Counted from the stretch's first letter, positions 2,224 to 47,554 are shown. The stretch: DNA of 64,000 nucleotides from Candidatus Woesearchaeota archaeon (GCA_016188245.1 JACPIE010000038.1:30939-94938); one strand, 5' to 3'. Notes: generated by a model from the letters alone, not told the origin. Numbers and translations are program-made.

Positions 2224-2242
2224 ATTTTTAATTTTATCAAGA

Positions 2243-4180: not shown

Positions 4181-4198
4181 CTTTTTGCTTCATTATTT

Positions 4199-7535: not shown

Positions 7536-7541
7536 TTTTAC

Positions 7542-9988: not shown

Positions 9989-10353
9989 ATAACTATACCG
10001 AATGGAATATATACTATTAATATAAAAACATTCCGATTTGTTGTTTTATACTTTTTGGTATATACTTTTTAAAATTATATTCTGTTTAGTAGAGAAGTAA
10101 TATTTAAAGCTTGTGATTTGATAATTTATACTAATTGGTATATATATTTTTTGGTATAATCATTATTTGAGCACCCGAATGAGTTTAATAATTGCTATCA
10201 ATTTAAACTTTCCATATAGAAAATAAATTTGTTTTGCTCTATAAACCGAAAGATTTAAATATAAGTGTTATCATGTATAAGTAGTAACATATTAGATATA
10301 ATTGCAATAAAATATTTAAACAATAAAAACAAACAAAAGAGTGAACAAAGAAA
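9989..10353. promoter_or_regulatory. AT-rich divergent promoter region with three copies of a TTGGTATA(T/A) element
   Basis: Copies at ~10055, ~10135 and ~10151. TATA/BRE-like AT tracts lie between the divergent 5-gene operon and the gene at 10354. Confidence 0.3.
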
Positions 10354-28991: not shown

Positions 28992-30752
28992 TTACCTTCT
29001 CAAAAACCCGCTCAAAGTAATCTGCTCATCACGTTTTGAGCTCAAATAAATCACCTGGCCTTCTCTTGAGCCATACCTGTAAACAGAAATTCCTTTACAG
29101 CCGAGCTCATAGGCCATCATAAAGATTTTCTCAACATCTTCAACAGTTGCGTCTTTTGGCAAAGTTACGGTTTTTGAAATGCCGTTGTCAACATATTTCT
29201 GGAAGGCAGCCTGCATCCTGACGTGCCATTCCGGGGCAATGTCGGAGCCGACAACAAATATCTTTTTTAGTTTATCAGGAATCTCGTCTATATTTTTTAA
29301 CGAGCCTTCTTTGTTGATTTTATCAATTATCTCGTCATTGTACATATAATTTTCCTTAAGGGATTTCTTCAGCTCTTCATTAAAATAAATTAATGTTTTT
29401 CCTTCTGCAGTCCTCCTTGCATAGCTCAGGGCAAACAAAGGCTCTATGCCGCTTGACACGTCTGCAATTATGCTTATTGTGCCTGTCGGCGCAATTGTTG
29501 TTCTTGTTGCGTTCCTTAAGGGCATGTGGCAGCCTTTGAAGTATTTTGATTTCTTGTTGTAAACACTGTTTTTCCATTCCGGGAAAGCGCCTCTTTTCCC
29601 TGCAAGCTCAAGTGATGCAATGCTTGCTTCTTTTGAGATGAATTTCATGATTTTTTCTGCCGCATTTAGCCCATCTTGGGAATCATAGGCAATTCCGAGC
29701 TTTATGAGCATGTCGGCAAATCCCATGACCCCAAGCCCGATTTTTCTGTTCTTGTAAACAATTTTTTTATTTTCTTCCAGCGGGTATTGGCACATGTCAA
29801 TCACATTGTCAAGAAAATGCACGGCAGAATGCACAATTTTTTTTAATCTTTCAAAATTTATTTTTTTGCCATCAGCCATATTTGACAGGTTAATGCTTCC
29901 CAGATTGCATGCTTCATACGGCAGAAGCGGCTGCTCGCCGCAGCTGTCTGTGCTCTCAATTTTTCCAAGCTTTGGAGTCTGGTTAAACTCATTAATCCTG
30001 TCTATGAAGATGACTCCGGGGTCTCCATTTAGCCATGCCTGCCCGCAAATCAGCCTGAAAATTCTTTTTGCGCTTTCTTTTTTTTCAATTTTTTTTGTTC
30101 TTGGGTTCTCCAGGCTGTAATTCTTGTTTTTCCTGGCAGCCTGCATGAATTTGTCAGTTATGGCAACTGAAACATTGAAATTAGTGAGCACATTCTCTTT
30201 GCTTTTTATTGTTATGAACTCTTCAATATCTGGATGGCTTGCATTCAGAATCCCCATGTTGGCCCCCCTTAAAGTGCCGCCGAGCTTTATCTGCCCAGTT
30301 GCCGCGTCAAACACCTTCATGAAGGAAACAGGCCCAGAAGTAAAGCCGGAACTTTCTATCATGTCTCCTTTTGGCCTCAGCCTTGAAAAATTGAATCCTG
30401 TGCCGGCCCCTGTTTTATGAATCAAGGCCGCATCATGCAGAGTCTTAAAAATTGAGCTTATGTCATCTTCAATCGGCAGGACAAAGCAGGCTGCAAGCTG
30501 CTGCAGCTTTCTCCCGGCATTGAGCAGAGTCGGAGAATTCGGCAGAAAATCCAAAGACACCATCAAATCGTAGAATTCCTGCTCCGTTTTTTTGGCATTT
30601 CCCCCGTATCTTGCATCAGGCTTGGCAATATTCCTTGCAACTCTCCTGAACATGTTTCCCGGCCCCTCGACAACTTTTCCATTTTCATTTTTTTTCAGGT
30701 ACCTATGCTCAAGAATCAATAACGCATTTTTTGACAGGCTAAGCTTTTGCAT
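28992..30752 (-). CDS. nrdJ: adenosylcobalamin-dependent ribonucleotide reductase (class II), compact paralog without ATP cone or inteins
   Basis: Matches the large RNR at 33971 in 'GAGTGFNFSRLRPKGD', 'LRGANMGILNASHPDIEEFI', 'DPGVIFIDRINEFN', 'STDSCGEQ...EACNLGSINLS', 'TIAPTGTISIIADVSSGIEP'. It lacks the N-terminal ATP cone and the C-terminal Zn ribbon. Confidence 0.8.
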   Translation of the reverse strand: MQKLSLSKNALLILEHRYLKKNENGKVVEGPGNMFRRVARNIAKPDARYGGNAKKTEQEFYDLMVSLDFLPNSPTLLNAGRKLQQLAACFVLPIEDDISSIFKTLHDAALIHKTGAGTGFNFSRLRPKGDMIESSGFTSGPVSFMKVFDAATGQIKLGGTLRGANMGILNASHPDIEEFITIKSKENVLTNFNVSVAITDKFMQAARKNKNYSLENPRTKKIEKKESAKRIFRLICGQAWLNGDPGVIFIDRINEFNQTPKLGKIESTDSCGEQPLLPYEACNLGSINLSNMADGKKINFERLKKIVHSAVHFLDNVIDMCQYPLEENKKIVYKNRKIGLGVMGFADMLIKLGIAYDSQDGLNAAEKIMKFISKEASIASLELAGKRGAFPEWKNSVYNKKSKYFKGCHMPLRNATRTTIAPTGTISIIADVSSGIEPLFALSYARRTAEGKTLIYFNEELKKSLKENYMYNDEIIDKINKEGSLKNIDEIPDKLKKIFVVGSDIAPEWHVRMQAAFQKYVDNGISKTVTLPKDATVEDVEKIFMMAYELGCKGISVYRYGSREGQVIYLSSKRDEQITLSGFLRR

Positions 30753-32318: not shown

Positions 32319-32638
32319 GGTTTTATAAGATGGGCAAAACTGCGCGAAGAATTTTGATTGGCTCTGCAGCCTTTGTGTTCACAGGATTGGTGCATAGAAT
32401 ACTTGAAGATGAAATTTTAAGGCTAAAATCACTTAAATTTATAAGCGAGACTGCAGCAGAAAGAGCCAAAACCCCAGACGATAGGTATATTCATCAAAAA
32501 CGCTCTGAATACTATGGAAGGCTTGCCATCATTGCTGAAACTATTCAGTCTATAAACCCCTTTTCCATCCCATCCCATTTAAGAAATGTTTACAACAACT
32601 ATTCATCAAAAAAGCACTATGAAGCTGGCAAATCTTAA
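32315..32638 (+). CDS. hypothetical protein
   Basis: Likely start at MGKTARRIL. One hydrophobic segment. No motif recognised. Confidence 0.3.
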   Translation: MRFYKMGKTARRILIGSAAFVFTGLVHRILEDEILRLKSLKFISETAAERAKTPDDRYIHQKRSEYYGRLAIIAETIQSINPFSIPSHLRNVYNNYSSKKHYEAGKS

Positions 32639-33246
32639 TACTCAATCCCTTTTCTCGCCACAATCCCTTTTTGCCACGGATGCTTAACGCTTTGAATGGC
32701 ATTGACATAATCTGCCGCTTCCATTAATTCTTTTGGAGCGTCCCTGCCTGTGAAAACCAGCTCGACTTTTCCGTGCTCTTTGGCAATTTCCAAAACTTCT
32801 TTTAAAGGAATCAATTCCTTTGCAAGAGCGCAGTTTATCTCGTCCAGAATGACCATGTCATAATCATTGCTTTTAATGATTTTTTTGGCATGCTCCCACC
32901 CTTCCATCGCAGCGTCTTTTTCCTTGATGTCCGGCTGGAAAACAAATCTTCCTGTTTTGTCCTCAAACTCCTGCAGGTGCTTCTGCCTTTCTTTCAGCGC
33001 ATCAACCCCGAACTGTTCAATCTCAAATCCAAGTTTTTTGGCCGAATAAATTTCTCCTGTGAACCCGCTTTTCAGGAATTGTATCATATGGACTTTTAGA
33101 TTATTGCCGACTGCCCTCAAAGCCAGCCCAAGCGAAGAAGTTGTCTTGCCTTTGCCGTCCCCAGTGATTACATGGACTAATCCGAGGCTTTCCCTGCTGT
33201 TGTCGCCGGTTACTTTGATTGGAGACTTTATTTTTGTCAGTGACAT
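32635..33246 (-). CDS. cobO: cob(I)alamin adenosyltransferase (CobA/CobO/BtuR type)
   Basis: P-loop 'ITGDGKGKTTSSLG' and 'MVILDEIN'. Lies between the two B12-dependent RNR genes. Confidence 0.8.
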   Translation of the reverse strand: MSLTKIKSPIKVTGDNSRESLGLVHVITGDGKGKTTSSLGLALRAVGNNLKVHMIQFLKSGFTGEIYSAKKLGFEIEQFGVDALKERQKHLQEFEDKTGRFVFQPDIKEKDAAMEGWEHAKKIIKSNDYDMVILDEINCALAKELIPLKEVLEIAKEHGKVELVFTGRDAPKELMEAADYVNAIQSVKHPWQKGIVARKGIEY

Positions 33247-33970: not shown

Positions 33971-36900
33971 TTAAGTGCAGAGGCCCCATCCGCATCCCGG
34001 GCAGTGCAAACATCCTTCTTTAAGCTCAACTTTAGTGCCGCACTCCGGGCAGTTCTTGATTGTCTGTTTTGTAATCGGCCTTGCATCGCTTCCATTGCCG
34101 TTGGCAAAAACAAGCCCGGATTCCGACTCTTTGACCATCTTTTTCATCTCTGGCTTTATGTCCACTTCAATATTTGCGCCTTCCTTTTTCTCTTTGGCTT
34201 TTGGGGCGACAAGCACTTGATCCTTGATGCTGGAATCCCTGAACACAGTCACATCCTTGCAGCCAAGCGTGTAAGCCAGGATATAGCTTTCTTTCATGTC
34301 CTCAACAGTTGCATCTGCAGGAAAATTGTTTGTCTTTGAAATGCTTGAGTCCACCCATTTCTGGAATGATGCTAAAGCTCTTATATGGTCTTCCGGAGTC
34401 ATGTCAGTTGCCGTAACAAGCACCTTCCTCAGTTGCTCAGGCAGATATTCAATTCCCTGTATGCTGCCCCTGTGCTCGTTTATGTCTTCCATGAGCTTTT
34501 CATTCAACAGACCTTCATCCCTGAGCACTTTTTCAGCAGCGGGATCCACATAATAAAAGCTGCCGACTTTCACATTCTTCTCAAACACAAGGGAATAAAC
34601 CGGTTCCATTCCTGATGAGCATCCGGCAATCATTGAAATGCTCCCTGTTGGGGCGATTATTGTAGTATACCCATTCCTGATGCCGTGCTTCTTTATGTCT
34701 TCGCTTATTTTGCCCCAGTCAAAATGCGATTCATCTTTTAAATAAGGGCCCCTTATCGGCAATTTTCCCTGCTTGTAAAAGCTTTTGTCATAATATGGAA
34801 GATTGCCCCTTGCCTTTGCAAGCTCTATGCTTTCAACCTTGCTCCAGTAGGCTATGAACTCCATCAGCAGCTCCATGAATTTTCTTCCTTGTTCTGAGTT
34901 GTAGGCAAGCCTTAATTCATACAGCAAATCACCGACTCCCATTACACCCAATCCTATCTTCCTTGTGCTTAAGCTCATCTCCTCGATTGCTTTTAACGGG
35001 AAATTGTTGACATCAATAACATTGTCCAAAAATCTTGTGCAGCCCCTTACAACCTCCCTTAATGAGTCCCAGTCAACTGTCTTGTTGCCTTCCTCATCTT
35101 CTTTTGTAAATGCCCATACATTTATGCTGCCAAGATTGCACGGCTCATTTGGGTAAAGCAGAACTTCGCCGCAATTATGCACAACAATGCCATTGGCTAT
35201 GAAAGAATGTGTTGATGGTTCTGTAATGTCATAAACTTCTTCAATGCCACTTATCTCTATTCTATCTATGCTGTCTTCATGTTCTTCATTAGTAGTTATT
35301 ATCCTATCTTCTTCCGTTAATTTTGCAGCTTCTATCCACCCATTTGAAGTCAGTATTTTATGATCTGGTGTGCATCTCAAGTCATTTCCTTTTTTGGTAA
35401 TCAATTTAATGGTTTGTTTTAAGCCGGTTTTGAACACTTTATATTGCGTAACATGATTTATCAATTCCAAAAATTGATTTCCGTTTTTTACCGTTTGATG
35501 TACGGCTATTCCCACACCTCCATTAGGATATTTTTCAGCCAATTCTTTTATACTTATCGAACCACTCTTGGTCAAAATCATTGTATCTCCTGTTACGCAA
35601 GGATTAGTCGTGACAATAGGCCCAAGATGCTCGTAAAATGGGTTGTATTCATTTACCCTGTCAAAAAATATAATGCCGGGCTCTGCAGATTCCCAGGCCT
35701 GATAGACAACCTTGTCAAATAACACTCTTGGGTTTACAGTTTTGACCACTTTTCCGTCCTTTGGATTGACTAAGGGATATGGCTCGTTCTTTTCATAATG
35801 CTCCCAAAAATCAGGCATTATCAGTATGCTTATGTTGAAATTCCTCAATGACTTGTTGCCATCCTTGGCGGTTATGAACTGCTCTATGTCAGGATGGTTT
35901 GAATTCAGGATGCCCATGTTTGCCCCTCTTCTTATCCCCCCTTGCTTTATCACTTCAGTCATTGTATCAAACAGCCTCATGAAGCTCAAAGGCCCTGAAG
36001 CTACCCCCCCTGTGGAGCTGACAAAATCGCCTTCCGGCCTGAGCTTTGAGAAATTGTAACCCATGCCGCCTCCTGCTTTAAACACAATTGCAGTATTCTT
36101 TAGCGTTTCCATGATTCCGTCTATGGAGTCCGGAACATCCAATACAAAGCAATTATGCACAGAAACCATATTTGCAACATAAGAATGGTCTTCTTCAATC
36201 TCAAGATTGTATACAGTTCCGACATAATCCACTTTCGATATTTCGTCTATTTCTGTAAAGGTTATGCCATCTGCAACAATGGTATTTGGCTTGTAACCAC
36301 TATCAACTTCCTGCCTGTCAAATAATTCATTAATAAGCAAAAGGCCATTTTCTCCGCTTATTGTGCACCTATAAGGCTGGGTTGTTCCAAGCTTCGGCAT
36401 AGACTCCTTACCTAAAGCAGTAAAGACACCGCAGCGCATAGCCATCTGCCAGAAAGCATAAACTAAATTTTGATTGCACATCACAAGTTTTGCGTTTGTT
36501 TTATGCGAGTTTTTGAATATGGTGCCGTCTCCTCTTATCAGTCCAGCCATAATTCCTTTTTGCTTATTCTGGGGCAGTTTTATAATCCATTGCGGTATAT
36601 ATTTATTTTTATACCCTCTGCCTAAAATGTTTTCAAAGAAATTAGCCAGTATTGTAGAATGAAACCTTAACGATAGCCATTTTCTAGCTTCGCTATTTGT
36701 TTTTTCTATTCTTGCAGAAACTCCAAATTTATTCTCCATTATTGATATAACTTCTCTGCAATAATTTTCCTCATCGGCCGAAAATGTAAATCTTACACAA
36801 TCCTTGTCTGCAATTGAGCCTTCAGAAAGATAATACCCAAATAACTTCATAAGCTCGTAATCAACAGTAATGCTATTTTTTACAGGCTTTGTAGTGTGTA

Positions 36901-38104
36901 CAAATGCATTGAATTTTCCTCCCTTATACTCATAGGCACACTCATCCTTTTCATTCAAGGTTACATTTTTAACTACGTCATTAATCCTTATTTCTGTAAT
37001 TTCTTCTGTTTCTGTAGGGTAAGATAAAGCTACATAATCTCCTTCATCAAGCATATTAAGCTGTATCCATTGAATCTTGTTGTCCTTATAGCTCAGTATA
37101 GGATGCTCTTCTGTTACAAGCATGGAAGGCTTTGGGAGTTTGCTGCAACTCACTTTGTATAAAGAGTTCGTATCTCTAACATATACTTTTTCAACTTTTC
37201 TAAACCTGCCCCTGTGTGTCAGTACTTCATCTCCAACTTTAATGTTTTTTATTTCCTTTGGACCATCTTTAGCCATTATTGGTTGGTTTGGATGAAAGCA
37301 TGCGCTTCCCATTCCCAAAGGATTGCCAAAATTGGCAATTGCAGGGGTATTCGGCATAAACAGCTTTCTTGTCATCAAATTGTAAAGCTCATCAAAATTC
37401 TTCTCATAGCTGTCAAGCTCGCCTTTCTTTATCATATCAAAGAGCTTGCTCCATGACACTTTCATCTGCCCGTTGCCGTTGAACCTGTCGTACATTCTCT
37501 TCAGCGCTTCCAGATGATACCTGTTAAGCCTGTATTTTCCAATTCCATACTGGTCTTCATTAATAGCGGGCTTGAAGTCTTCTGTGAAGTTTACCGGCTG
37601 CTGGCCGTGTATATCGAACAATCTTGCATCGTAAAACAAGTCAGGCAAAGCCGCATGCACTGCAACTCTTGTAAATAGCTGCTTGGGAGTTTCAATCAGC
37701 TTGCCTGTTGCATCCTTTCTCAAGTACCTTGCTTTCAGGACCCTTAACGCGTTTACATCAAAGCGCTTGTCAACTTCGTCAATTTCCTCTTTTTCAAGCA
37801 CAAGCTGCTTTTCCTTTCTTACCTCTGACCTTTGCTGCCTGTAAAGAATGTAGGCTTTTGCAGTTGCAGCATGCCCTTCCTCAATAAGCACTTTTTCCAC
37901 AATGTCCTGAATTTCTTCAACAGAAGGCACGTCTTTGTTGAGATTTTCAAGCTGCCCAATAACTTTGTCGCTGATTTGCCTGGCTGCTTTCCTGTCTTTT
38001 CCTCCGACAGCCCTTGCAGCCTTGAAAACAGCCTCTGTAATCTTGTTTTGGTCAAATCCTGCCACAGTCCCGTCCCGTTTCCTTATCTGAAAAAGCTTTT
38101 GCAT
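33971..38104 (-). CDS. nrdJ: adenosylcobalamin-dependent ribonucleotide reductase (class II) with ATP cone, two inteins and C-terminal Zn ribbon
   Basis: N-terminal ATP cone 'IRKRDGTVAGFDQNKITEAV'. Catalytic exteins 'GGGMGYNFSKLRPEGD', 'GIRRGANMGILNSNHPDIEQFI' and NPC|GE. C-terminal 'CPECGTKVELKEGCLHCPGCGWGLCT'. The intein-free product would be 852 aa. Confidence 0.9.
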   Translation of the reverse strand: MQKLFQIRKRDGTVAGFDQNKITEAVFKAARAVGGKDRKAARQISDKVIGQLENLNKDVPSVEEIQDIVEKVLIEEGHAATAKAYILYRQQRSEVRKEKQLVLEKEEIDEVDKRFDVNALRVLKARYLRKDATGKLIETPKQLFTRVAVHAALPDLFYDARLFDIHGQQPVNFTEDFKPAINEDQYGIGKYRLNRYHLEALKRMYDRFNGNGQMKVSWSKLFDMIKKGELDSYEKNFDELYNLMTRKLFMPNTPAIANFGNPLGMGSACFHPNQPIMAKDGPKEIKNIKVGDEVLTHRGRFRKVEKVYVRDTNSLYKVSCSKLPKPSMLVTEEHPILSYKDNKIQWIQLNMLDEGDYVALSYPTETEEITEIRINDVVKNVTLNEKDECAYEYKGGKFNAFVHTTKPVKNSITVDYELMKLFGYYLSEGSIADKDCVRFTFSADEENYCREVISIMENKFGVSARIEKTNSEARKWLSLRFHSTILANFFENILGRGYKNKYIPQWIIKLPQNKQKGIMAGLIRGDGTIFKNSHKTNAKLVMCNQNLVYAFWQMAMRCGVFTALGKESMPKLGTTQPYRCTISGENGLLLINELFDRQEVDSGYKPNTIVADGITFTEIDEISKVDYVGTVYNLEIEEDHSYVANMVSVHNCFVLDVPDSIDGIMETLKNTAIVFKAGGGMGYNFSKLRPEGDFVSSTGGVASGPLSFMRLFDTMTEVIKQGGIRRGANMGILNSNHPDIEQFITAKDGNKSLRNFNISILIMPDFWEHYEKNEPYPLVNPKDGKVVKTVNPRVLFDKVVYQAWESAEPGIIFFDRVNEYNPFYEHLGPIVTTNPCVTGDTMILTKSGSISIKELAEKYPNGGVGIAVHQTVKNGNQFLELINHVTQYKVFKTGLKQTIKLITKKGNDLRCTPDHKILTSNGWIEAAKLTEEDRIITTNEEHEDSIDRIEISGIEEVYDITEPSTHSFIANGIVVHNCGEVLLYPNEPCNLGSINVWAFTKEDEEGNKTVDWDSLREVVRGCTRFLDNVIDVNNFPLKAIEEMSLSTRKIGLGVMGVGDLLYELRLAYNSEQGRKFMELLMEFIAYWSKVESIELAKARGNLPYYDKSFYKQGKLPIRGPYLKDESHFDWGKISEDIKKHGIRNGYTTIIAPTGSISMIAGCSSGMEPVYSLVFEKNVKVGSFYYVDPAAEKVLRDEGLLNEKLMEDINEHRGSIQGIEYLPEQLRKVLVTATDMTPEDHIRALASFQKWVDSSISKTNNFPADATVEDMKESYILAYTLGCKDVTVFRDSSIKDQVLVAPKAKEKKEGANIEVDIKPEMKKMVKESESGLVFANGNGSDARPITKQTIKNCPECGTKVELKEGCLHCPGCGWGLCT
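35174..35599 (-). mobile_element. intein 2 (142-aa mini-intein) inserted at the NPC|GE radical-Cys motif
   Basis: 'VTTNP|CVTGDTMILTK...GIVVHN|CGEVLLYPNEPCNLGSIN'. Cys1, a terminal HN and a +1 Cys are present and there is no endonuclease domain. The paralog reads '...SCGEQPLLPYEACNLGSINLS' at this site. Confidence 0.85.
36152..37300 (-). mobile_element. intein 1 (383 aa) with LAGLIDADG homing-endonuclease domain, inserted before a conserved active-site Cys
   Basis: Begins with Cys ('GMGSA|CFHPNQ') and ends 'MVSVHN|CFVLDV'. LAGLIDADG blocks 'LFGYYLSEGSI' and 'IMAGLIRGDGTI'. The extein junction aligns with 'LAACFVLPIEDD' in the intein-free paralog. Confidence 0.85.
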
Positions 38105-38361: not shown

Positions 38362-38778
38362 ATGAATAAAAATCGTGAAGAATGCTATGTTTTAACTGAG
38401 AAACTTGAAGAGATTACATGGGCATTGGATGGGAGCTGCAATGACATAGACTGTGACAAGTACATGTATAAACGGCTTCTTAAAAAGAAATACAAGCCGG
38501 TCCTAAAGCATAGCTACTCATGCATTCCTAAATTAAAAATGGAAAAAGAAGCAGTTATGCGCTTGTTATCTTTAAAAAAATTCCGACAGTTTCGATACAA
38601 AAAATGCGAAGTATGCGGCAGGAAAATAGATTCGTTAGGAAAACATTATGCGATTGTAAGTTTTACAAAGCCTGCTGAATATAATGGCAAGAGAGTATAC
38701 GAATGTAAATTGATTCGAACACACAAAAAATGCAAGCATAAAGTTAGCATACCGATGGGCTGGCAAAAAATGGGATAA
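38362..38778 (+). CDS. Cys-rich hypothetical protein (Zn-ribbon-like)
   Basis: 'CEVCGRK...YECKLIRTHKKCKH' CxxC pairs. Lysine-rich. Confidence 0.35.
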   Translation: MNKNREECYVLTEKLEEITWALDGSCNDIDCDKYMYKRLLKKKYKPVLKHSYSCIPKLKMEKEAVMRLLSLKKFRQFRYKKCEVCGRKIDSLGKHYAIVSFTKPAEYNGKRVYECKLIRTHKKCKHKVSIPMGWQKMG

Positions 38779-39187
38779 TTCTTTTGTCAGAAAAATAAGA
38801 GAAAAGTTCACATAACGTACAATATTTCACGAGGTTTTTTTCCTCACAAAATTTTCCCTCGTGAGCAAATTTCGGCAACCCATGAAATTTGCGAACAGAG
38901 TTGGAAAATTTTGAGAGCTGGAAAAAACTTAGGACAAATCGAAAAATGCTTGGCATTTTAGCTTAAGCGTTCGATTTTTCCGTGAAATATGTGTTATATT
39001 CTTTTCCCATGCGTAGTGTGGGAAAACTGCGTCCGCAGACTTTTTTAGACATCGTAAATCTGAGAGGCACTGTAGTTTTTACAGTAGATTTCTGCCTAAG
39101 GCAGACTAGATGTCCGAAGGACTAGAGAAGGGGCTTTTAAATTACATTAATATTTATATATGTTAATTATTTCTAGTTAAGTCAAAA

Positions 39188-40327
39188 ATGGATAAGAAAC
39201 TTCCAGATATCAGTGAATTGCCTGAAAGTCAAAGGATTCTTCTTAGGAGAGGGGGCAAAATAAAAGTTCCAAGTGAAAAAACGATTGGGTTTTTAAAATT
39301 ATACAATAAAAATATAAGAGGCACGATTGCTGGCAATGCTGTATATGCTATCCTTAACCCAGAAAAAATTGATGAAAAATTCAGAAAAGAGAATCAAGAA
39401 AAAATTGAGGAAACTCTGAACAATTACCTAAAAATAGCTTTAAAAGATATGAACAAGCAAATTGATTTGCATAAGGTCAATGAAAATATCTGCCTTTTTG
39501 ATGAGGGAATTGGTTTAGGAATATATGTGCCAAAGCTTATTCAGCAATACTTTCGCAAAGAATCTACTTATTTCAGTGATCTACTTTATGGAGCAAAATA
39601 TAATAGAAATCTTCTTAATCTTTCTGTTTTTAGCAAAATACTTTCAAAGAACATAAGGAATTTTACAGATCATGTGAATATTGATTACTTAATTTTCATG
39701 CCTTACTCACATAAAGGTTCAAAATCATTTTTTCCTTTGGAAATAATTGAGAAGGAGATACAAAAACAAGTGAACATTCCAATTTTTAGAATAATCAATA
39801 CGTCACAGCAAGAAAATCTCAAATATTCTACTTGGGCGCATAAAATACAGAGCATACTTCCAAATTTAAGAATAGACAATCCTGAAAAATTAAAATTTAA
39901 GAATATCATTCTAATTGATGATATCTATAATACTGGTGCACATCTTGCAGTTGCTTGCATAAAATTAAGACAAGCTAGTGTAAACAATATTTTTGTTTTA
40001 ACGTTGGGAGTATCCGATAATGTTAAGAATGATTTAAGCAATGAATTTGATTGGGAATGGCTGGATTTTTATAATGAAAGAAAAGAAACAAATATGATAA
40101 CTACTTCCCTCAGTCTAATAACTTTAAATTATCCATTAGACACGATAAACAAGAAGACTTCCCATTACAACTTAAAAGACTATGGAATCAAAGAATTATT
40201 GTTGACTAATACGTACCTCAAGAAAATGTTCAGAATCCATGTGAGATATTCTTCTAACAGAAGGAGTTATGTTCTTTTCATTGAGCCAGAATTAAAAGAA
40301 AAATTGAAAAGCTTTATAGGGAAATAA
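39188..40327 (+). CDS. phosphoribosyltransferase (PRTase)-domain protein, ShosT-like
   Basis: Type I PRTase PRPP-binding motif 'IILIDDIYNTGAHLAVACIKL'. Strongly AT-rich gene. Confidence 0.5.
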   Translation: MDKKLPDISELPESQRILLRRGGKIKVPSEKTIGFLKLYNKNIRGTIAGNAVYAILNPEKIDEKFRKENQEKIEETLNNYLKIALKDMNKQIDLHKVNENICLFDEGIGLGIYVPKLIQQYFRKESTYFSDLLYGAKYNRNLLNLSVFSKILSKNIRNFTDHVNIDYLIFMPYSHKGSKSFFPLEIIEKEIQKQVNIPIFRIINTSQQENLKYSTWAHKIQSILPNLRIDNPEKLKFKNIILIDDIYNTGAHLAVACIKLRQASVNNIFVLTLGVSDNVKNDLSNEFDWEWLDFYNERKETNMITTSLSLITLNYPLDTINKKTSHYNLKDYGIKELLLTNTYLKKMFRIHVRYSSNRRSYVLFIEPELKEKLKSFIGK

Positions 40328-40925
40328 TATCAGAGAGCTTGTTAAAGCTAAAATCTGGCTTTTCTTTTATTTTGTTATTATTATGCCAAAGTACAAGCCC
40401 AGAAAGACATCCAGCGTTTTTTGCAGCCAGAATATCCACATCCTGATCGCCGATATAGATTGTATTTTCAACATCTCCTTTTAGGTAATTGATGGCAATT
40501 AGTAAGGGTTTTGGGCTAGGCTTTCTAGCTCTTGTTTCACTGGGAGTTACTATCACATCTCCATATCTCAATAGATTGAATTGATTTAGCAATTTAAACG
40601 CAAACTCCTTTTTCAAAGAAGTTACAAATCCAATCTTTTTATCATTGCTTTTAAGGACTTTCATAGTTTCTTGAGTATTTTCAAAAAATAGTCTAATTTT
40701 GTCCAAATTGCTAGCATAAAATTTCCAGTATTTATTTAAGGACATAATACGGAATTCTGACAATATAGAGGTAAAAGATGCTCCCTTTCTTAATTTTGTA
40801 AATACATCTTCTTGATTAATATTTTTTCCTCCAGAATCCAAGATTGTATTAAATATTGCTTCAGCAATGCAATTTTCTGAATGCCAAAGTGTACCATCTA
40901 AATCAAATAAAATTGTCTTAATCAT
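40314..40925 (-). CDS. HAD-superfamily phosphatase
   Basis: Motif I 'ILFDLDGTLWHSE' and C-terminal 'IYIGDQDVDILAAKNAG'. Confidence 0.75.
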   Translation of the reverse strand: MIKTILFDLDGTLWHSENCIAEAIFNTILDSGGKNINQEDVFTKLRKGASFTSILSEFRIMSLNKYWKFYASNLDKIRLFFENTQETMKVLKSNDKKIGFVTSLKKEFAFKLLNQFNLLRYGDVIVTPSETRARKPSPKPLLIAINYLKGDVENTIYIGDQDVDILAAKNAGCLSGLVLWHNNNKIKEKPDFSFNKLSDIISL

Positions 40926-41830
40926 TTAAAGGGAAATTTTACTTCATGACCATTAGCAAAAGCAATGATTTCGGCTTTTTGGTCATTTTTAATTTTCAAA
41001 TTACCACTATACGCTTCGGTATTGTCTTGGAATGGGATAAGAACCCCAATTGGCTTTTTTTGCTCCTTTGCTGCAATATAGGAATTCATAGTTCCTCCTT
41101 TTTCAGAAGTCTGCACAATCAAAACATAATTTGATAGCCCAACTATTATTTTATTCCTTTTTTTCAGGGCAAAATCTTGAACTTTGGTTCCTGGAGGGTA
41201 TTCACTTATAATTATCCCGTGTTTAATTATTTCATTTTTTAAAATTAAATTTTCTTTAGGATAATCAACGTCAATTCCACATCCTAATACTGCAATAGTA
41301 TCCCCACTATTATCTAATGCTGTTTTATGAGCTATTGCATCAAGTCCCATAGCTAAACCGCTAACTATACAAAAACCATCATTAACTAGTTTTTTTACAG
41401 CAATTTTGCCATTTTCTATTGCCCATTCATCAGGTTTTCTTGTACCTACAACAGCGCAAGATTTTAGTTTATTTAGAGTACTTAAATTTCCTTTAACATA
41501 TAGAATAGGCACAGAATGACTGGACTCAAAGAGGGTTTTGGGGTAATCTTGTTCAAAAAAGGTAATTATCTTTACCTGATTTAAATTTGTTTTTTCTATT
41601 ATCTTGTGTGCTTCATGTTCAAAATATTCTAATTTTGGTTTTCTTTCTAAAATTTGAGAAACTACCTCTTTTTTTAACTTAAATTCACTTTCTAATTCCT
41701 CTTTTGTCATATCAAATACTTTTTGAAATGATTTGTAAGCCTTAAAAAAAGTCTTAAATTTAACTGGGCCAAATCCTTTAACTTCTAAAAGATTTAGAAT
41801 CGCCCCTAGCTCCTTTAGATCATTCACCAT
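40922..41830 (-). CDS. dprA: DNA-processing protein DprA/Smf
   Basis: N-terminal SAM/HhH domain, then Rossmann DprA core 'IVSGLAMGLDAIAHKTAL...TIAVLGCGIDVDYPKEN...RNKIIVGLS'. Confidence 0.8.
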   Translation of the reverse strand: MVNDLKELGAILNLLEVKGFGPVKFKTFFKAYKSFQKVFDMTKEELESEFKLKKEVVSQILERKPKLEYFEHEAHKIIEKTNLNQVKIITFFEQDYPKTLFESSHSVPILYVKGNLSTLNKLKSCAVVGTRKPDEWAIENGKIAVKKLVNDGFCIVSGLAMGLDAIAHKTALDNSGDTIAVLGCGIDVDYPKENLILKNEIIKHGIIISEYPPGTKVQDFALKKRNKIIVGLSNYVLIVQTSEKGGTMNSYIAAKEQKKPIGVLIPFQDNTEAYSGNLKIKNDQKAEIIAFANGHEVKFPFK

Positions 41831-41952
41831 AATATAAAGTCTATCAATGTTAATTTAAAAAATTATCTAATTATATGGGGCAAACAAGCTAGGGAGTTGG
41901 GGCTTTAAAATACCATTTATGATTTTAGAATTTTTGATTTTTTACAAATATA

Positions 41953-44835
41953 TTACCAATTTACTTTAATCTTTAGTACTTCGTTGTGCAATTTATTAAA
42001 ATAATCTAATTTACCGTCTTTTTTTCCTTTTTCATATAGTTTTTTTATTAATCTTACATCATGCTTACAGTACTCTGTAACTTTATCTATTTTTCCCTCC
42101 TTAAACCATTTTAAAGATTGCAGTCCATCCGCTATCTTATTCTCATTAAAATTTATTTGGGCAAGGTCTCCTAATTTTAATCTAAAATTAAGCCTGTTTC
42201 TTATATGTTCTAATAAATCTAATGGTTTAATCAAATTCTGATTAAAATTTTCATACCCAGATAAAACTCTAAAATCGAAATATTTGATATTATACCCAAT
42301 AACTAAATCTGCCTTGTATAAAGATTCAATTAGTGCCTGCACTTCATTTTCTGTATAAACTTGATAGTTATCATTATTATCTAGGGTAACAGCTATAGCT
42401 ACCTTCATTTTGTCAATATTTCTCCATCCGCCTACTTCATCTGCACCTTTCTGAGTTTCTACATCAAAAAAGATTATATTTTGTTGAATTTTAGTATCTT
42501 CATCAATTAGTTTCGTAACTAATTGAGGCTCTACCTTTATATCTTCCACTTTTAGATAGCCACGCATATATTTTAATATTTCAATTGCAGTGGCTTTACT
42601 TAGTGGTTCATTATCATTACCACACTTAGGACTCATTATACATTTAGGGCAGCCATTGTCTTTATTACATTTGCATTTACTTATTAGTTCATTCGTAAAA
42701 CCTAATAGCTCGTCAAATATATTATATGCTTTTTCACAAAGTCCAATCCCTCCATCATATCCGTCGTAAATAAAGATAGATGCTCTTTTAGTTTGTGGAT
42801 GGAATAACATGGAATATCCGCCTATGTCCCATCGGTCACATAAAACTTTGATTGGAAATAAAGAAATTATGCCATGTTCAATTGCATGCAATCCACCTCC
42901 ATAAAGTGTCTCTTTATCTATGTTATTTTTTGGACAAAATGTAGAACTAACTACATCTGGTAGTTCTATCCAACAAGATTTAGTTATTAGCTTTACCATA
43001 GGGCAATCTACATCTATTAAAGAACTCATTTTTTCTCTTGTAGACTTCTTTATTTTATAGTAACCAATTACTTGTTCATTTACTTCGACTATTCCAAATT
43101 TTAGTTTGAAACTATTAAATGTTTTTTCATCTAACACCTTTATAACTCTAATGTCTTTGAGAGAATATGGCTCAGTATAATAATCAACAAAACAAGGTTT
43201 GACATAAATATCTTTTCCATAATCATCAATTTCTGTAACGATGAATTCCCTTCCCCCATGTAAGTATATAGCTCCGCTATGGCATTCATTGTAGATATTA
43301 AATATTGAAATATCCCCGATGACTTCTTTTTTGTTTTTGTTGATAATTGTATATTGTTGTCTCGAATCCCTTAAAGTAACTTTTCTGTGTAGGTCTTGGT
43401 GAGATATTAAATCGCCCCTATAATTTCTTGCTAATCTTCCCTCACTCTCTAATTCTTCCATGATTTTTTTGGCATAAACAGGAAAATATTTTTCATTATC
43501 TTTTTGTAATGGAAACTCTATCGATGCACACAATAGATGATTCATTAGGACATACCTATTATTAATATCAATTATGGCTTCCTCAAATTTATTCTCAAAA
43601 AGATAATTTGGATTATCTAAAAAATAGGAGTCCATCGGAGAACTACCATCAAATAAAATTACTACAAAAGATTCCTTATCCCTTCTTCCAACCCTGCCTG
43701 CTTGTTGCCAAGTGCTTATTAAACTCCCCGGATAACCAACCATAATGCAAAAATCTAAATTCCCGATGTCTATTCCAAGTTCAAGTGCATTTGTGCTAAT
43801 AATACCTTTTAATTTTCCTGTTCTAATTTTTTTCTCGATTTCTCGTCTTTCTTCTGGGAGCAAGCCTGCTTTGTACGGTTTAACAACTTTTTTTATGTCA
43901 TTATCACTCCACATATAAAGTAACTCAGTAATTTTTCTTGCTCTGGTAAAGGCTATCGTTTTCAAATTTGATTTAATACCTAACTTCAATAACTCAACAG
44001 CTTCTGTATTGATTGACCTTTGCTCGATATCTTGATTTTTGAGAAGCTCATTAATATCACTAATTGTAGGTGTCCAATAAATAAAATTTTTCTTGCTGGA
44101 AGGGTGATGAGATTCAGTAATTACTTTAAAATATCTGCCAGGGATTAAGTTATCTATAAATGATTCTGGATTACCAATTGTCGCCGAGGAACTGATAAAT
44201 TGAGGATTTGAATTGTATAAGTCGCATATTCTCAACAATCTCCTCATGACCATTGTAAAATGTGTCCCAAATATTCCTCTGTATATATGAGACTCATCTA
44301 CAATAACATATTTCAAATTTTTAAAAAATTTCTCCCATTTTTCCCTATATCTTAAAATTGCACAATGTAATTCATTAGGGTTAGTAATGATTATATTAGG
44401 CAGGTTGTGTCTTATGAATCTTTTCTTTGAATCATCAGTGTCTCCATCGTAAACTTCAAAGCTAAAACCTTTATTGTAAGGTAGATTTTCGTCTATTTCT
44501 CTTAATTTTTCTAATTGATCTTGTTGTAGAGCTTTCAAAGGAAAAATATAAAGTGCTCGAGTTTCTTTATTTCTTAATATACTATTTAAAACTGGAATGT
44601 TATAGACTAGTGTCTTGCCACTTGATGTTGGGGTTGTTAATAATACATTATCCTTTCTGTGTACAAGTTCGATAGCTATTGATTGATGTTTGTATAATTT
44701 TGTAATTCCTAATTTATTTATAGCATTCTTCAAATCTTGGTCTATCCAGTGGGGGAAATCAAAGTATTGTCCCTCTTTCTCATCTATAACTTTCCAAAAT
44801 TTTATTTTTTTGTTATCGAGATTTAAAAAGTTCAT
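41953..44835 (-). CDS. MrfA-like DEXH-box helicase with DUF1998 zinc domain fused to a C-terminal MrfB-like DEDD 3'-5' exonuclease
   Basis: Helicase motifs 'LLTTPTSSGKTL', 'VIVDESH', 'QQAGRVGRR'. DUF1998 Cys cluster 'CKCNKDNGCPKCIMSPKCG'. Exonuclease Exo I 'IFFDVETQ', Exo II 'YNIKYFDFRVL', Exo III 'YCKHDVRLIKKLY'. Confidence 0.75.
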   Translation of the reverse strand: MNFLNLDNKKIKFWKVIDEKEGQYFDFPHWIDQDLKNAINKLGITKLYKHQSIAIELVHRKDNVLLTTPTSSGKTLVYNIPVLNSILRNKETRALYIFPLKALQQDQLEKLREIDENLPYNKGFSFEVYDGDTDDSKKRFIRHNLPNIIITNPNELHCAILRYREKWEKFFKNLKYVIVDESHIYRGIFGTHFTMVMRRLLRICDLYNSNPQFISSSATIGNPESFIDNLIPGRYFKVITESHHPSSKKNFIYWTPTISDINELLKNQDIEQRSINTEAVELLKLGIKSNLKTIAFTRARKITELLYMWSDNDIKKVVKPYKAGLLPEERREIEKKIRTGKLKGIISTNALELGIDIGNLDFCIMVGYPGSLISTWQQAGRVGRRDKESFVVILFDGSSPMDSYFLDNPNYLFENKFEEAIIDINNRYVLMNHLLCASIEFPLQKDNEKYFPVYAKKIMEELESEGRLARNYRGDLISHQDLHRKVTLRDSRQQYTIINKNKKEVIGDISIFNIYNECHSGAIYLHGGREFIVTEIDDYGKDIYVKPCFVDYYTEPYSLKDIRVIKVLDEKTFNSFKLKFGIVEVNEQVIGYYKIKKSTREKMSSLIDVDCPMVKLITKSCWIELPDVVSSTFCPKNNIDKETLYGGGLHAIEHGIISLFPIKVLCDRWDIGGYSMLFHPQTKRASIFIYDGYDGGIGLCEKAYNIFDELLGFTNELISKCKCNKDNGCPKCIMSPKCGNDNEPLSKATAIEILKYMRGYLKVEDIKVEPQLVTKLIDEDTKIQQNIIFFDVETQKGADEVGGWRNIDKMKVAIAVTLDNNDNYQVYTENEVQALIESLYKADLVIGYNIKYFDFRVLSGYENFNQNLIKPLDLLEHIRNRLNFRLKLGDLAQINFNENKIADGLQSLKWFKEGKIDKVTEYCKHDVRLIKKLYEKGKKDGKLDYFNKLHNEVLKIKVNW

Positions 44836-45348
44836 TTTATCTTGTTATACCCTATTCTTTTGTTGGTTAAAGTAAAATATTATATAAATATTCCCTTATA
44901 AAAGCTCCTTCTCCCGTCGTTAAGTAAAAACTTAGGAGAACGAAGTGAACCGTATAATCTCTCGTTATGCGAATCTCCTTGAGTTTGCATTTCTAAGATT
45001 ATGCGAAAGTGTCTCTCAATTAAGATTTACGGCGTAAGCCTTTTCATAGGTGTCTAAAAAAGTGAATATAACGCCGTTATGGCGAACTTTTCAATCTGCA
45101 TTTTTTGTATTTTGCCCTAAAAACAGAATTCACTTACAATGCACTATTCTGTTGTTCTTGGTGTAACAAACCAGTTTATTTTTCCATATTGTAGACAACT
45201 ATTCCAAGATAGCAACAAAAATGTACATTTTGTACAAAAGTTTATATATAATCTCTACATTATACTAATTTAGCAGGTAAAACCTGTTGGTCAGTGTACT
45301 TTGAAGTGCACGCACAACAGTACCAGCAGGTGCTGCTTTTCTTTCGTT

Positions 45349-45960
45349 TTACCATAAATGGGCTACGTTAACTTTTTTCTCGATTACCCTGAAATAAATG
45401 TCATTGCCGTGTTCAAACTTATGAAAAACTGCCCATGACACAATATCTGCTATCTGCAATCCGGGCCAAGCATGTGACCAGCTGTGGTATATCTCTATCT
45501 CCCTAGCCCATCTCGCTTCTTTGAACTTCATCTCCATATACTTGTTAAAGTCTTCAATTAAAGTCTGCTTTCCTTTTGACCTGTCAATCCTCATAGTCAA
45601 TCTTCTGGAATCAACCGATATATTGGCTAAATGGCTGCACACAAAATTATACAATTTGTGCTTGTCGCTTTTGAGAAATTGGCTATACAATTTTTTCTTT
45701 TCAAGTATAATGCTTTGTGCATGGGCGGATTCAATTTCCATAAACTTTTTTAATGTATGCATAATCAATTCTGCACTTGAGTCATTCGCCTTGATTTCAG
45801 AAGCATTTTTTAGCTCTTTTTTAAATTTGTTTCTTCTCATATTTTTTATTATTCGTTCTAAGAAAGCGGGATTGTCTACCCAAATTGCAGTAATCACAAA
45901 ATATTTTGAGCCCTTTTCTCCTAAATCTCCAGTTTCATCAATGTAAACGTATCTTTCCAT
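45349..45960 (-). CDS. DUF3800-domain protein
   Basis: N-terminal 'VYIDETGDLG' is the signature start of DUF3800. Confidence 0.65.
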   Translation of the reverse strand: MERYVYIDETGDLGEKGSKYFVITAIWVDNPAFLERIIKNMRRNKFKKELKNASEIKANDSSAELIMHTLKKFMEIESAHAQSIILEKKKLYSQFLKSDKHKLYNFVCSHLANISVDSRRLTMRIDRSKGKQTLIEDFNKYMEMKFKEARWAREIEIYHSWSHAWPGLQIADIVSWAVFHKFEHGNDIYFRVIEKKVNVAHLW

Positions 45961-46000: not shown

Positions 46001-47554
46001 CTATTCAACACTCTTTCCTAATTTAGATAGCTTTTCCCCTTCCATAAACCTCCTTAAAACATCCTTCAAGTCTTTTATTTTGACTCTGATTTGCTCTGTC
46101 GTATCTCTCGATCTTATTGTCACAGATTCATCCTCCAGGCTTTCAAAATCAACAGTGACAGATGCGCAGATTCCTGATTCATCTGCCCTTGCATACCTTC
46201 GCCCTATCGAGCCCGAAGTGTCAAAAGTGCAGGTCCATCCTGCCTTTAGCTCATCATACACGCTCTTTGCTTTCTTGACAAGCTCTGCCTTATTGGAAAC
46301 AAGAGGAAAAATTCCTATTTTTATGGGCGCCAGCCTCGGATGCAGCTTCAGCACTACATTGTCCCTTGACTTGTCGTAATTGTAGGCATCAAACATGAAT
46401 ACAAGGAAAGCCCTTTCCACCCCTTGCGACGGCTCGCAAATGACATGAGGCAAAATTTTTTTCTTTGTCTCTTCGTCAAAAATGCTCAAGTCAGTCTTGC
46501 TGTGCTCCATGTGCTGCTTTAAGTCAAAGTCTGTCCTGTTTGAAAGCCCCTGCAGCTCCTTCCATCCGAAAGGAAACTCGTATTCCAGGTCCCATGTGTC
46601 AAGCGCATAATGCGAAAGCTCGTCTTTTACATGCTGCCGTATCCTGAAATGCCCGGAAGAAGCCCCCAAATCAACAAACCATTTGTGCATTATAGCCAGC
46701 CAGTAAGCATGCCATCTTGTCTTTATTATCTTTTTGCTGAGGCATTCTTTTATCGGCATCTTCTGCATTTTTTGGCCTTTTTTTTGCATTTCAGCTGAAA
46801 GCACATTCAGCTCATAGTCAATGACATCTTCAATGTAGGCGCATTCATCCTGCTTTTCAGGATGGACAAAATATTCAATCTCCATCTGCTCGAATTCCCT
46901 CATCCTGAACAGGAAATCCCTTGGTGAAATTTCGTTCCTGAATGATTTTCCGATTTGGGCAATCCCAAACGGAAGCTTCAGCCTTGCATTCTCCTGCACA
47001 AGCCTGAAGTTGGCAAAAATCAGCTGGGCTGTTTCCGGCCTCAAATAAGCCGCTGAGGCATCGCTCTGAATCGGCCCAATGTGGGTTGTGAACATAAGGT
47101 TGAATTTTTTGGCATCACCTAGGCTGCCGCTGCACTTTGGGCATTTGATTTTATGCTCTTTTATCTCTGCATTCAGGCCTCCAATAGTCATGCCTGCTGT
47201 GGGAATCTTCAACGTATCCTCGACCAAAGTATCTGCCCTGAACCTTGAATTGCACTTCCTGCAATCGACAAGCACGTCAGAAAAGCCGGCTGCATGCCCG
47301 CTCGCTTTCCACACAAGCGGATTTGATATGATGCTTCCGTCAATGCCGACAACATCATCCCTCTGGTGTACAAATGTTTTCCACCACTCCTTCTTTATGT
47401 TGTTCTTTAATTCAACTCCAAGATGCCCGAAATCATAAAATCCGGCAATTCCCCCATAAATCTCGGAATTAGGGTAGACAAACCCCTTTCTCTTGCAGAA
47501 AACAGCCATCTCATCGATTGTTAGTTTTTTTGCGTCTTGCTTGATTTTTTCCAT
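46001..47554 (-). CDS. glyS: glycyl-tRNA synthetase (archaeal/eukaryal type)
   Basis: Class II motifs 'GIAGFYDFGHLGVELKNNIKKEW', 'FRNEISPRDFLFRMREFEQMEIE', and the anticodon-binding C-terminus. Confidence 0.9.
   Translation of the reverse strand: MEKIKQDAKKLTIDEMAVFCKRKGFVYPNSEIYGGIAGFYDFGHLGVELKNNIKKEWWKTFVHQRDDVVGIDGSIISNPLVWKASGHAAGFSDVLVDCRKCNSRFRADTLVEDTLKIPTAGMTIGGLNAEIKEHKIKCPKCSGSLGDAKKFNLMFTTHIGPIQSDASAAYLRPETAQLIFANFRLVQENARLKLPFGIAQIGKSFRNEISPRDFLFRMREFEQMEIEYFVHPEKQDECAYIEDVIDYELNVLSAEMQKKGQKMQKMPIKECLSKKIIKTRWHAYWLAIMHKWFVDLGASSGHFRIRQHVKDELSHYALDTWDLEYEFPFGWKELQGLSNRTDFDLKQHMEHSKTDLSIFDEETKKKILPHVICEPSQGVERAFLVFMFDAYNYDKSRDNVVLKLHPRLAPIKIGIFPLVSNKAELVKKAKSVYDELKAGWTCTFDTSGSIGRRYARADESGICASVTVDFESLEDESVTIRSRDTTEQIRVKIKDLKDVLRRFMEGEKLSKLGKSVE

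Follow-up and report, generated by a model that had tools for sequence, protein, structure and literature searches.

Can a phosphoribosyltransferase (PRTase), a HAD phosphatase, a DprA-like protein and a helicase-exonuclease, encoded side by side in a low-GC stretch of an archaeal genome, be considered a toxin–antitoxin (TA) system of the ShosTA kind, and how are the activities of ShosTA divided among these genes? The question is raised by a locus in the metagenome-assembled genome of a Candidatus Woesearchaeota archaeon (GCA_016188245.1, JACPIE010000038.1:30939-94938); this stretch of 64,000 nucleotides, analyzed at its full length, is referred to below as the window. A preliminary description had pointed to an AT-rich, probably horizontally acquired island at 39188-45960 encoding a PRTase, a HAD phosphatase, DprA, a helicase–exonuclease fusion and a DUF3800 protein, and had compared the PRTase and DprA with ShosTA; all the genes it named were found where it had placed them. 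The four-gene core of the locus, B (PRTase), C (HAD phosphatase), D (DprA-like), and E (helicase-exonuclease), occupies positions 39188-44835, between a ribonucleotide reductase gene and glyS (Table 1). On balance, and with moderate confidence, this low-GC core can be regarded as a damage-and-repair module of the ShosTA kind that was acquired horizontally and has the domains of ShosTA redistributed among its genes.

ShosTA is a recently characterized damage-and-repair anti-phage TA system whose toxin substrate is still unknown; its E. coli representative was described in two papers (PMC11961720; PMC12961424). E. coli ShosT is a HAD-like pyrophosphatase (residues 1-164) fused to a C-terminal PRTase (residues 165-424); it binds phosphoribosyl pyrophosphate (PRPP) and none of the tested purines (PMC11961720). 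The DD motif of the PRTase is essential for toxicity, which is enhanced by the pyrophosphatase domain (PMC11961720; PMC12961424). ShosA, a DprA-like protein with SAM and Rossmann domains, attaches to single-stranded DNA (ssDNA) as well as to RecA, and neutralizes the toxin without binding it (PMC11961720; PMC12961424). The solved structures are PDB 8ZVB for ShosT and 8ZVA/9VZO for ShosA. In DefenseFinder-based work ShosTA was enriched in Asgard archaea, so the general kind of system is already known in archaea; a literature search found no description of a tripartite or fused DprA–HAD–PRTase form.

The DprA–HAD–PRTase Trio in Related Loci

The composition of the module emerges from ten independent loci encoding the subfamily of D, annotated with the window proteins and with a 370-aa PRTase, PRT2, of locus L007. 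In nine of the ten the HAD gene adjoins the DprA gene or is fused to it, and next comes, in all eight loci with enough sequence, a ComF-like PRTase (PRT2, a B-like protein, or both). At least 13 of the approximately 57 closest relatives of D, about a quarter, are DprA::HAD fusions of approximately 515 aa, including one of Freyrarchaeum, an Asgard archaeon. The PRTase/HAD/DprA trio thus has the same domain inventory as ShosTA, and for this reason the HAD gene can be considered the counterpart of a ShosT domain and not an incidental neighbor.

The layout noted in the preliminary description, with the PRTase gene convergent with the helicase-DprA-HAD operon and neither adjacent to nor co-oriented with the DprA gene, was confirmed. 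Wherever a B-like gene is present it is oriented convergently to the DprA operon, at the latter's end; this arrangement is shared by four independent loci (the window, L007, L009/L100, and L090/L099) at 49-51% identity of the B-like proteins, a recurrence that bears out the proposed functional link between the PRTase and DprA. As to the wider gene set of the island, the DprA–HAD–PRTase part recurs in other genomes; E accompanies it only in the window, and the DUF3800 gene in none of the other loci.

PRT2 genes were found in six of the related loci, always downstream of DprA-HAD. Their products form a 370-aa family with 44-85% identity and almost no Pfam signal. An N-terminal domain of approximately 130 aa is combined in them with a ComF-like PRTase, and conserved cysteines hint at a zinc ribbon.

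Two features of the surroundings of the related loci are worth mentioning. In Candidatus Freyrarchaeum guaymaensis (JAUQZD020000106.1, L094, 10665-11071) the peptide 'QSSWVRNCFCK' occurs three times in the ORF (open reading frame) translations directly after DprA::HAD–PRTase, which indicates regularly spaced direct DNA repeats resembling a CRISPR array. In L101 (8499-11212) and L103 (10010-13678), which are divergent loci, a pair of genes, one for an ATPase resembling SMC/Rad50 and one for a metallophosphatase resembling Mre11, lies in convergent orientation directly downstream of the module PRTase; their PADLOC matches are generic (LmuB/PbeC-like, about 100 bits), and the module may recurrently have such a repair nuclease as its partner, comparable to the MrfAB fusion of the window.

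Table 1. Features of the window and gene order in the related loci (:: denotes a fusion; positions of PRT2 genes refer to their own loci).
Locus	Feature or gene order	Position	Strand	Best match, basis, or neighbors
Window	E–DprA–HAD → ← B			ribonucleotide reductase, glyS, DUF3800
Window	B, ComF-like PRTase, 379 aa	39188-40327	+	PADLOC, TIGR00201, HHalign
Window	PRTase core of B, residues about 119-290	39542-40057	+	
Window	C, HAD-IA phosphatase	40314-40925	-	PF13419, E = 2.3e-28
Window	D, DprA-like, 302 aa	40922-41830	-	PF02481, E = 7.5e-57, 192 bits
Window	E, YprA/MrfA-type SF2 helicase with C-terminal DEDDh-like exonuclease domain, 960 aa	41953-44835	-	
Window	E, helicase core	about 43669-44700	-	
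Window	E, MZB/DUF1998	42637-42879	-	
Window	E, exonuclease domain	41956-42513	-	
Window	Promoter-like block upstream of B (…GACTAGAGAAGGGGCTTTTAAAT…AATATTTATATA)	39117-39160	+	alignment with the E block
Window	Promoter-like block upstream of E, homologous to that of B	44881-44921	-	
Window	Ribonucleotide reductase large subunit, intein-containing	33971-38104	-	
Window	DUF3800 gene	45349-45960	-	PF12686, E = 2.1e-16
Window	Glycyl-tRNA synthetase	46001-47554		PDB 8u2q, E = 1.6e-126
L007	x–DprA–HAD–PRT2 → ← B-like	PRT2 1709-2830		
L009/L100	DprA–HAD → ← B-like			
L090/L099	RadC–DprA–HAD–PRT2 → ← B-like	PRT2 2631-3752 (L090)		type I restriction–modification operon
L094/L095 (Freyrarchaeum)	DprA::HAD–PRT2	PRT2 9550-10671 (L094)		PIN/MazE, CRISPR-like repeats
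L101	DprA–HAD–PRT2	PRT2 7296-8408		AbiEii-like, SMC/Mre11-like pair
L102	DprA–HAD–PRT2	PRT2 3482-4591		deaminase, OLD-TOPRIM, RusA
L103	DprA::HAD–PRT2	PRT2 8572-9696		integrase, PLD, Rad50/Mre11-like pair
L104	DprA–HAD, contig ends			MazE-PIN, integrase
L092/L093	DprA alone			oxidative-stress genes

The PRTase and the HAD Phosphatase

Protein B, the putative effector or toxin of the module by analogy with ShosT, is annotated in NCBI as 'hypothetical protein HYV80_06445'. Its residues 241-253 constitute a PRPP-loop motif, ILIDDIYNTGAHL, of which D244, D245, and G250 do not vary within the B family or across ComF-like relatives; this motif and the matches to ShosT and ComF profiles bear out the earlier description of a PRTase-domain protein. 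The top match of B in the defense library is the PADLOC ShosT model PDLC03962 (E = 9.5e-13, 74% of the model covered), the PADLOC PsyrT model aligns through its PRTase end (model positions 542-682, E = 2.5e-7), and the ComF model TIGR00201 is matched with E = 3.9e-7 at 30 bits vs. a cut-off of 234. No Pfam family matched B at E ≤ 0.01. The homology of B and PRT2 is limited to the PRTase core (HHalign probability 94%, E = 1.3e-7); in B this core lies between family-specific N-terminal (about residues 1-120, approximately 120 aa) and C-terminal (about residues 290-379, approximately 90 aa) regions.

By its sequence relations, B appears to represent close to an orphan PRTase family. In a HMMER search that covered 1.84 billion representatives exhaustively it had only three matches below 1e-10, its own sequence and two fragments; in the same search, about 312 distant proteins of approximately 200-250 aa aligned to residues ~120-280 only, and all 29 of the 29 sampled were of the ComF/GntX family (TIGR00201). 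A metagenome scan for the B family yielded two loci only, both duplicates of loci already found; scans of viral contigs with the B and PRT2 families gave no matches, and a search of plasmids gave none with B and a single ComF gene with PRT2. The only cysteines of B are C102 and C257, with no CxxC pairs, and hence there is no ComFC zinc finger; SKSFFP stands where ComF has its RGFNQ loop, and H252 where the threonine of the PRPP loop is expected. The AlphaFold2 model of B, built on a three-sequence alignment, had a mean pLDDT (the confidence score of the model) of 52, and a Foldseek comparison of this poor model with PDB gave no match at E ≤ 0.001; both were treated as uninformative.

The catalytic motifs of C are intact (DLDGT at 8-12, T102, K135, and GDxxxD at 159-164), and all four HAD motifs are invariant across seven module HADs. 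The best NCBIfam match of C is the pyrophosphatase PpaX (E = 1.9e-32, under the family cut-off), followed by phosphoglycolate phosphatases. Three of the seven module HADs weakly match the E. coli-type ShosT model PDLC03012 (best E = 6e-5), and a module-HAD profile run against PDB retrieved generic HAD-IA phosphatases, with ShosT not in the best 60; homology of the module HAD with the N-terminal domain of ShosT is thus weakly indicated by sequence.

The DprA-Like Protein

Protein D consists of an N-terminal helical, SAM-like region, which aligns with the ShosA model from position 16, and a Rossmann DprA domain (residues 82-286), with no C-terminal winged-helix domain DprA_WH (PF17782). Its closest relatives, approximately 57 proteins with 42-59% identity (85% for one fragment), all lack PF17782 as well; past a step in the homologue list come canonical DprAs of approximately 360 aa with PF17782, 33-43% identical to D. 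With 168 bits, D stays under the cut-off of 191 of the DprA equivalog TIGR00732, and with the lack of PF17782 and its location in a low-GC insert it differs from a canonical housekeeping DprA. D can therefore be assigned, as far as sequence comparison goes, to a distinct DprA subfamily, and is a putative ssDNA-binding, recombinase-loading antidote by analogy with ShosA.

D matches the PADLOC PsyrA model (E = 1.2e-32) and gives 232 bits with the ShosA model PDLC03961. Three canonical bacterial DprAs with the C-terminal winged helix, used as a control, scored 231-247 bits on the latter model, so the comparison with ShosA profiles suggested in the preliminary description does not discriminate, and the PADLOC match was discarded as evidence. 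As a practical caution, the ShosA model taken alone does not tell ShosA from housekeeping DprA, and ShosTA calls rest on the PRTase partner. Against PDB, D is about equally close to DprA of S. pneumoniae (94 bits) and to E. coli ShosA (81 bits). That D is a ShosA orthologue is unlikely, as canonical DprAs resemble the Rossmann domain of E. coli ShosA more closely (mean 105 bits) than does the subfamily of D (mean 90 bits). What stands of the proposed ShosA type is thus the SAM and Rossmann architecture lacking the winged helix and the distinctness from housekeeping DprA, and not a closer relationship to ShosA than that of an ordinary DprA. A scan of genome contigs with the alignment of the subfamily was also discarded: the 80 loci among the matches listed all carried ordinary bacterial dprA (29-42% identity), the patterns of the scan being common to canonical DprA, and no subfamily context was gained.

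The Helicase-Exonuclease

Protein E, encoded in the orientation of D and 122 nt upstream of it, comprises the Pfam domains DEAD, Helicase_C, WHD_HRQ1, MZB/DUF1998, and RNase_H_2. Over residues 8-734 it matches B. subtilis YprA/MrfA (PDB 6ZNP; E = 8e-147, 494 bits vs. 66 bits with the RecQ model), and it scores 653 bits with TIGR03817; the helicase motifs GKT (73-75) and DESH (180-183) and the Cys cluster of MZB (721-738) are present. Its C-terminal 190 aa match RNase_H_2 (PF13482, E = 4e-6) and the polymerase exonuclease subunit PHROG 403 (E = 2.7e-13), and contain the exonuclease motifs DVET (791-794), YNxxxFD (848-854), and HD (925-926); no solved exonuclease was matched by the sequence of this domain. 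Fusions of approximately 960 aa like E have thousands of matches, of which the best 120 show 39-45% identity and the named ones are bacterial; two homologues that were inspected lie in unrelated, housekeeping-looking contexts, with glycosyltransferase or sensor-kinase genes. YprA/MrfA helicases with a fused 3'-5' exonuclease-like domain were assigned in a 2025 preprint to a DNA-repair branch of the YprA family. By its sequence, E can be classified as a repair helicase, probably a fusion of the MrfA–MrfB type, and not as a defense-type helicase. The earlier argument that a DUF1998 helicase marks a defense island does not apply to E, because of this repair-branch architecture and of the unrelated contexts of the inspected homologues.

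Base Composition and Boundaries of the Core

In 1-kb windows the GC content is 0.27-0.33 over 38.5-45.5 kb, vs. about 0.40-0.45 on either side. For the individual genes B, C, D, and E it is 0.296-0.310 (z = -2.9 to -3.4, relative to the 47 other ORFs of the window with a mean of 0.406 and standard deviation of 0.033), and the GC content at third codon positions is 0.20-0.27 vs. 0.42 for the other ORFs. The DUF3800 gene and ORF 38362-38778, both with a GC content of 0.353 (z about -1.6), fall inside the lower tail of the window. The AT-richness claimed for the segment was thus confirmed, and the island as delimited by composition comprises only the four core genes (about 39.0-45.0 kb) and is narrower than 39188-45960. 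In Logan assemblies, contigs of approximately 5.8 kb bearing exactly B, C, D, and E were found in several independent runs; one of them, L001, maps to 39066-44952 of the window, with single-nucleotide polymorphisms near its left end and no repeat. The foreign unit is taken to be the B–E core because both these contigs and the GC content per gene delimit these four genes.

No integrase was found among the genes flanking the core, no tRNA or Rfam family at its boundaries, and no att site or significant terminal repeat around it, the repeat search giving short pairs only. A 15-nt direct repeat at 38923/44926 (14/15 matching) was dismissed as a boundary, being one of approximately 20 chance-level pairs in an AT-rich stretch, as was a 13-nt inverted match at 39039/45051 as a terminal repeat (E about 0.3-0.4). 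Accordingly, the att sites and integrase remnants that had been proposed for inspection around the island did not materialize, and the claim of horizontal acquisition holds as regards the foreign composition of B–E and does not extend to the DUF3800 gene. The z value of about -3, together with the restriction–modification, PIN/MazE, AbiEii, integrase, OLD-type nuclease, and CRISPR-like neighbors of the module elsewhere, argues for a foreign, defense-island context.

A Cys/Lys-rich protein of 138 aa is encoded by ORF 38362-38778 (+), for which searches of Pfam, NCBIfam, PADLOC, and PHROGs gave no match; in GC content this ORF is intermediate between the core island and the genome. Directly 3' of it, on the left margin of the low-GC region, an imperfect hairpin of approximately 70 nt is located (38830-38925, +; minimum free energy -32.3 kcal/mol, z = -4.4, with 0/200 shuffles folding as well) that has no Rfam match; it might act as a terminator or represent a small structured RNA.

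Upstream Blocks and Transcription

B converges with the E-D-C unit, and the 3' ends of B and C overlap by 14 nt (40314-40327). A 44-nt block with the consensus AAsGACnnGAGAAGGrGCTTTTA…AATATTTATATA is shared by the upstream regions of B and E; the local alignment of the two copies scores 35 vs. 19.1±2.5 in dinucleotide shuffles (0/500 reach 35), and control segments of the island score at most 24. The core 15-mer, GAGAAGGRGCTTTTA, is present in the window only at these two sites. The A/T-rich end of the block lies 27 nt before the ATG of B and 45 nt before the start codon of E, short leaders compatible with archaeal TATA/BRE-type promoters or operators, which the blocks would represent judging by their sequence. 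Their sharing suggests that both arms are co-regulated in this genome. Within the 122 nt that separate E from D (41831-41952) lie an inverted copy of the block core, GGGGCTTTAAAA on the + strand, and A/T-rich TATA-like stretches; DprA-HAD may have its own promoter or a shared operator there.

Flanking Genes

The DUF3800 protein matches the PADLOC candidate PDC-M04A (E = 3.7e-7). Its gene is separated from E by 513 nt and is missing from the core-bearing Logan contigs and from all related loci; nothing was found that would link it to the module, and it is probably a neighbor and not a part of it. Counted earlier among the defense-island components, it lies outside the low-GC core (0.353 vs. 0.30).

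On the other side, two genes for ribonucleotide reductase large subunits are located less than 9 kb apart, at 33971-38104 (-) and 28992-30752 (-), with a corrinoid adenosyltransferase gene (32635-33246) between them. In the larger product (1377 aa) an ATP-cone is present, as is an intein that bears a homing-endonuclease domain of the LAGLIDADG type.

Interpretation of the Module

The ShosTA-like reading is supported by synteny, fusions, and domain logic, with the HAD as an additional ShosTA component, and not by profile matching of the kind that the preliminary description had suggested, the match to the ShosA model in particular. Observed are the genes and their composition, the homologies, the recurrent synteny and fusions, the intact catalytic motifs, and the upstream blocks in common; toxicity, its neutralization, an anti-virus role, the role of the HAD, and the involvement of E are inferred. 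By analogy with ShosT, B would use PRPP to form a harmful phosphoribosylated product that interferes with the metabolism of nucleotides or DNA. C might remove pyrophosphate and so drive the reaction, as in ShosT, or dephosphorylate the product; the HAD–DprA fusion hints at the latter, i.e., a role of C on the antidote side. D would bind ssDNA and recruit a recombinase, and the resulting repair of the damage would neutralize B, with E most likely strengthening the repair arm in this lineage by 3'-5' unwinding and resection. Balanced co-expression could be ensured by the convergent arrangement of B and E-D-C with its 3' overlap and by the homologous promoter-like blocks; an imbalance induced by a virus would then unleash B and abort the infection.

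Several observations weigh against the ShosTA-like reading. The solved ShosT chain is matched by B at E = 0.21 only, in the PRPP loop, a profile of the B family run against PDB sequences found no PRTase, and the HAD of the window matches none of the ShosT models. The match of D to the ShosA model is uninformative, as canonical DprAs score equally, and on sequence grounds the subfamily of D has no specific kinship to E. coli ShosA. In its genomic layout the locus differs from ShosTA as well: B is convergent and parted from D by the HAD gene, and no co-oriented two-gene operon is formed. The window carries no PRT2, which is present in six related loci; E is linked to the module in the window only, among the ten loci; a lone DprA of the subfamily occurs among oxidative-stress genes at L092; and the block upstream of B and E, sought in the other loci, is not conserved, being marginal in L007 only. 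Finally, toxicity and anti-virus activity rest on inference.

An unlikely but serious alternative is that the core is a cassette for DNA processing, repair, or uptake and not a TA or defense system, in which a PRTase binding ssDNA like ComFC, DprA, and the helicase–exonuclease would handle ssDNA and load the recombinase, in the manner of ComFA–ComFC–DprA in bacterial transformation; the HAD could then be a nucleotidase, and the cassette could be of use to a DPANN archaeon scavenging DNA and nucleotides of its host. The only named relatives of B are, after all, ComF/GntX competence proteins, ComFC has affinity for ssDNA and acts together with DprA (PMC9005727), and the recurring theme of PRTase, helicase, and DprA in DNA uptake and repair was noted earlier (PMC5512222). 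E belongs to the DNA-repair branch of YprA, D has the full SAM and Rossmann architecture and nearly the score of the DprA equivalog, and Rad50/Mre11-like pairs adjoin the module in two related loci. However, the zinc finger of ComFC is lacking in B, E does not belong to the ComFA type of helicase and is absent from the other loci, and the window ORFs examined included no genes for ComEC or pili. The module is moreover rare, patchy, and low in GC, with restriction–modification, TA, integrase, or CRISPR-like genes nearby elsewhere, and a convergent layout with overlapping 3' ends is unusual for a simple pathway operon. That the locus is a decayed or partial system, in which PRT2, the real ShosT-like toxin, was lost and an orphan DprA-HAD antidote was left with an accessory B and a co-acquired, unrelated repair helicase, is improbable. 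The DprA-HAD-PRT2 operon of the six related loci, the overlap of the HAD 3' end with B in the window, and the frequency of E in unrelated contexts would fit such a history, and the replacement of the RGFNQ loop and of the PRPP-loop threonine would fit a B that may be non-catalytic or regulatory. The layout lacking PRT2 recurs, however, in L009/L100 with intact ORFs 46-62% identical to the window proteins, which argues for a maintained PRT2-less variant; moreover, none of the four window ORFs is truncated and their motifs are intact, the invariant DD and G of the PRPP loop are retained in B, and B and E share the promoter-like block.

In a variant of the ShosTA-like reading, which must be considered very improbable, the module would write and erase a mark on DNA: the PRTase would phosphoribosylate bases, the HAD would dephosphorylate the adduct, the MrfAB-type enzyme would excise it, and DprA with the recombinase would complete the repair of the gap. 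This variant is based on the ComFC-like PRTase, ComFC being an ssDNA-binding protein, on the coupling of the HAD to the DprA arm, and on the presence of the MrfAB-type enzyme. The MrfAB pair in Bacillus removes bulky mitomycin adducts. Were the variant true, the antidote would consist in enzymatic reversal and repair and not in a metabolic bypass, and the module would be a DNA-phosphoribosylating analogue of DarTG.

Comparison with Known Systems

The ComFA–ComFC–DprA set resembles the core in that the ComF-like PRTase core of B is paired with DprA and a helicase; it differs from it in the ComFC zinc finger and the type of helicase, and the core has an island context with no uptake machinery found nearby. 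MrfAB (YprAB), of mitomycin-C repair in B. subtilis, is resembled by E in its YprA/MrfA match and its C-terminal RNase H-fold with DEDDh-like motifs; unlike the two homologues inspected, E is located head-to-tail with DprA-HAD inside a low-GC insert. PsyrTA/RqlHI, a RecQ-like helicase–PRTase fusion with a DprA-like protein, likewise combines a superfamily 2 helicase, a ComF-like PRTase, and a DprA-like protein; here, in contrast, the helicase is of the YprA/MrfA type with MZB and an exonuclease, is encoded by a separate gene, and is linked to the other two in the window only, and the HAD is extra.

With ShosTA the module shares a PRTase with a DD-type PRPP loop, a HAD-superfamily phosphatase or pyrophosphatase, a DprA-like protein with SAM-like and Rossmann parts but lacking the winged helix, and an island-like, patchy genomic behavior. 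It differs from ShosTA in that the HAD is not fused to the PRTase, B lacking a HAD domain, and is instead encoded by a separate gene of the DprA operon, or fused to DprA in relatives; in the N- and C-terminal regions of B's own; in the two PRTase paralogues often present in the relatives; and in the archaeal host, in which the recombinase partner would be RadA and not RecA. In a mostly uncultivated lineage, archaeal where named, the same three activities are thus partitioned differently, with the phosphatase placed with the DprA antidote, and such re-partitionings constitute Rosetta-stone-like evidence that the three activities form one functional unit. The comparison prompts one to ask which side, toxin or antidote, benefits from the phosphatase, and suggests the repair of DNA lesions as the axis of neutralization; the re-partitioned HAD, the near-orphan PRTase family of B, and this hint of lesion repair are the points in which the module is of interest beside ShosTA.

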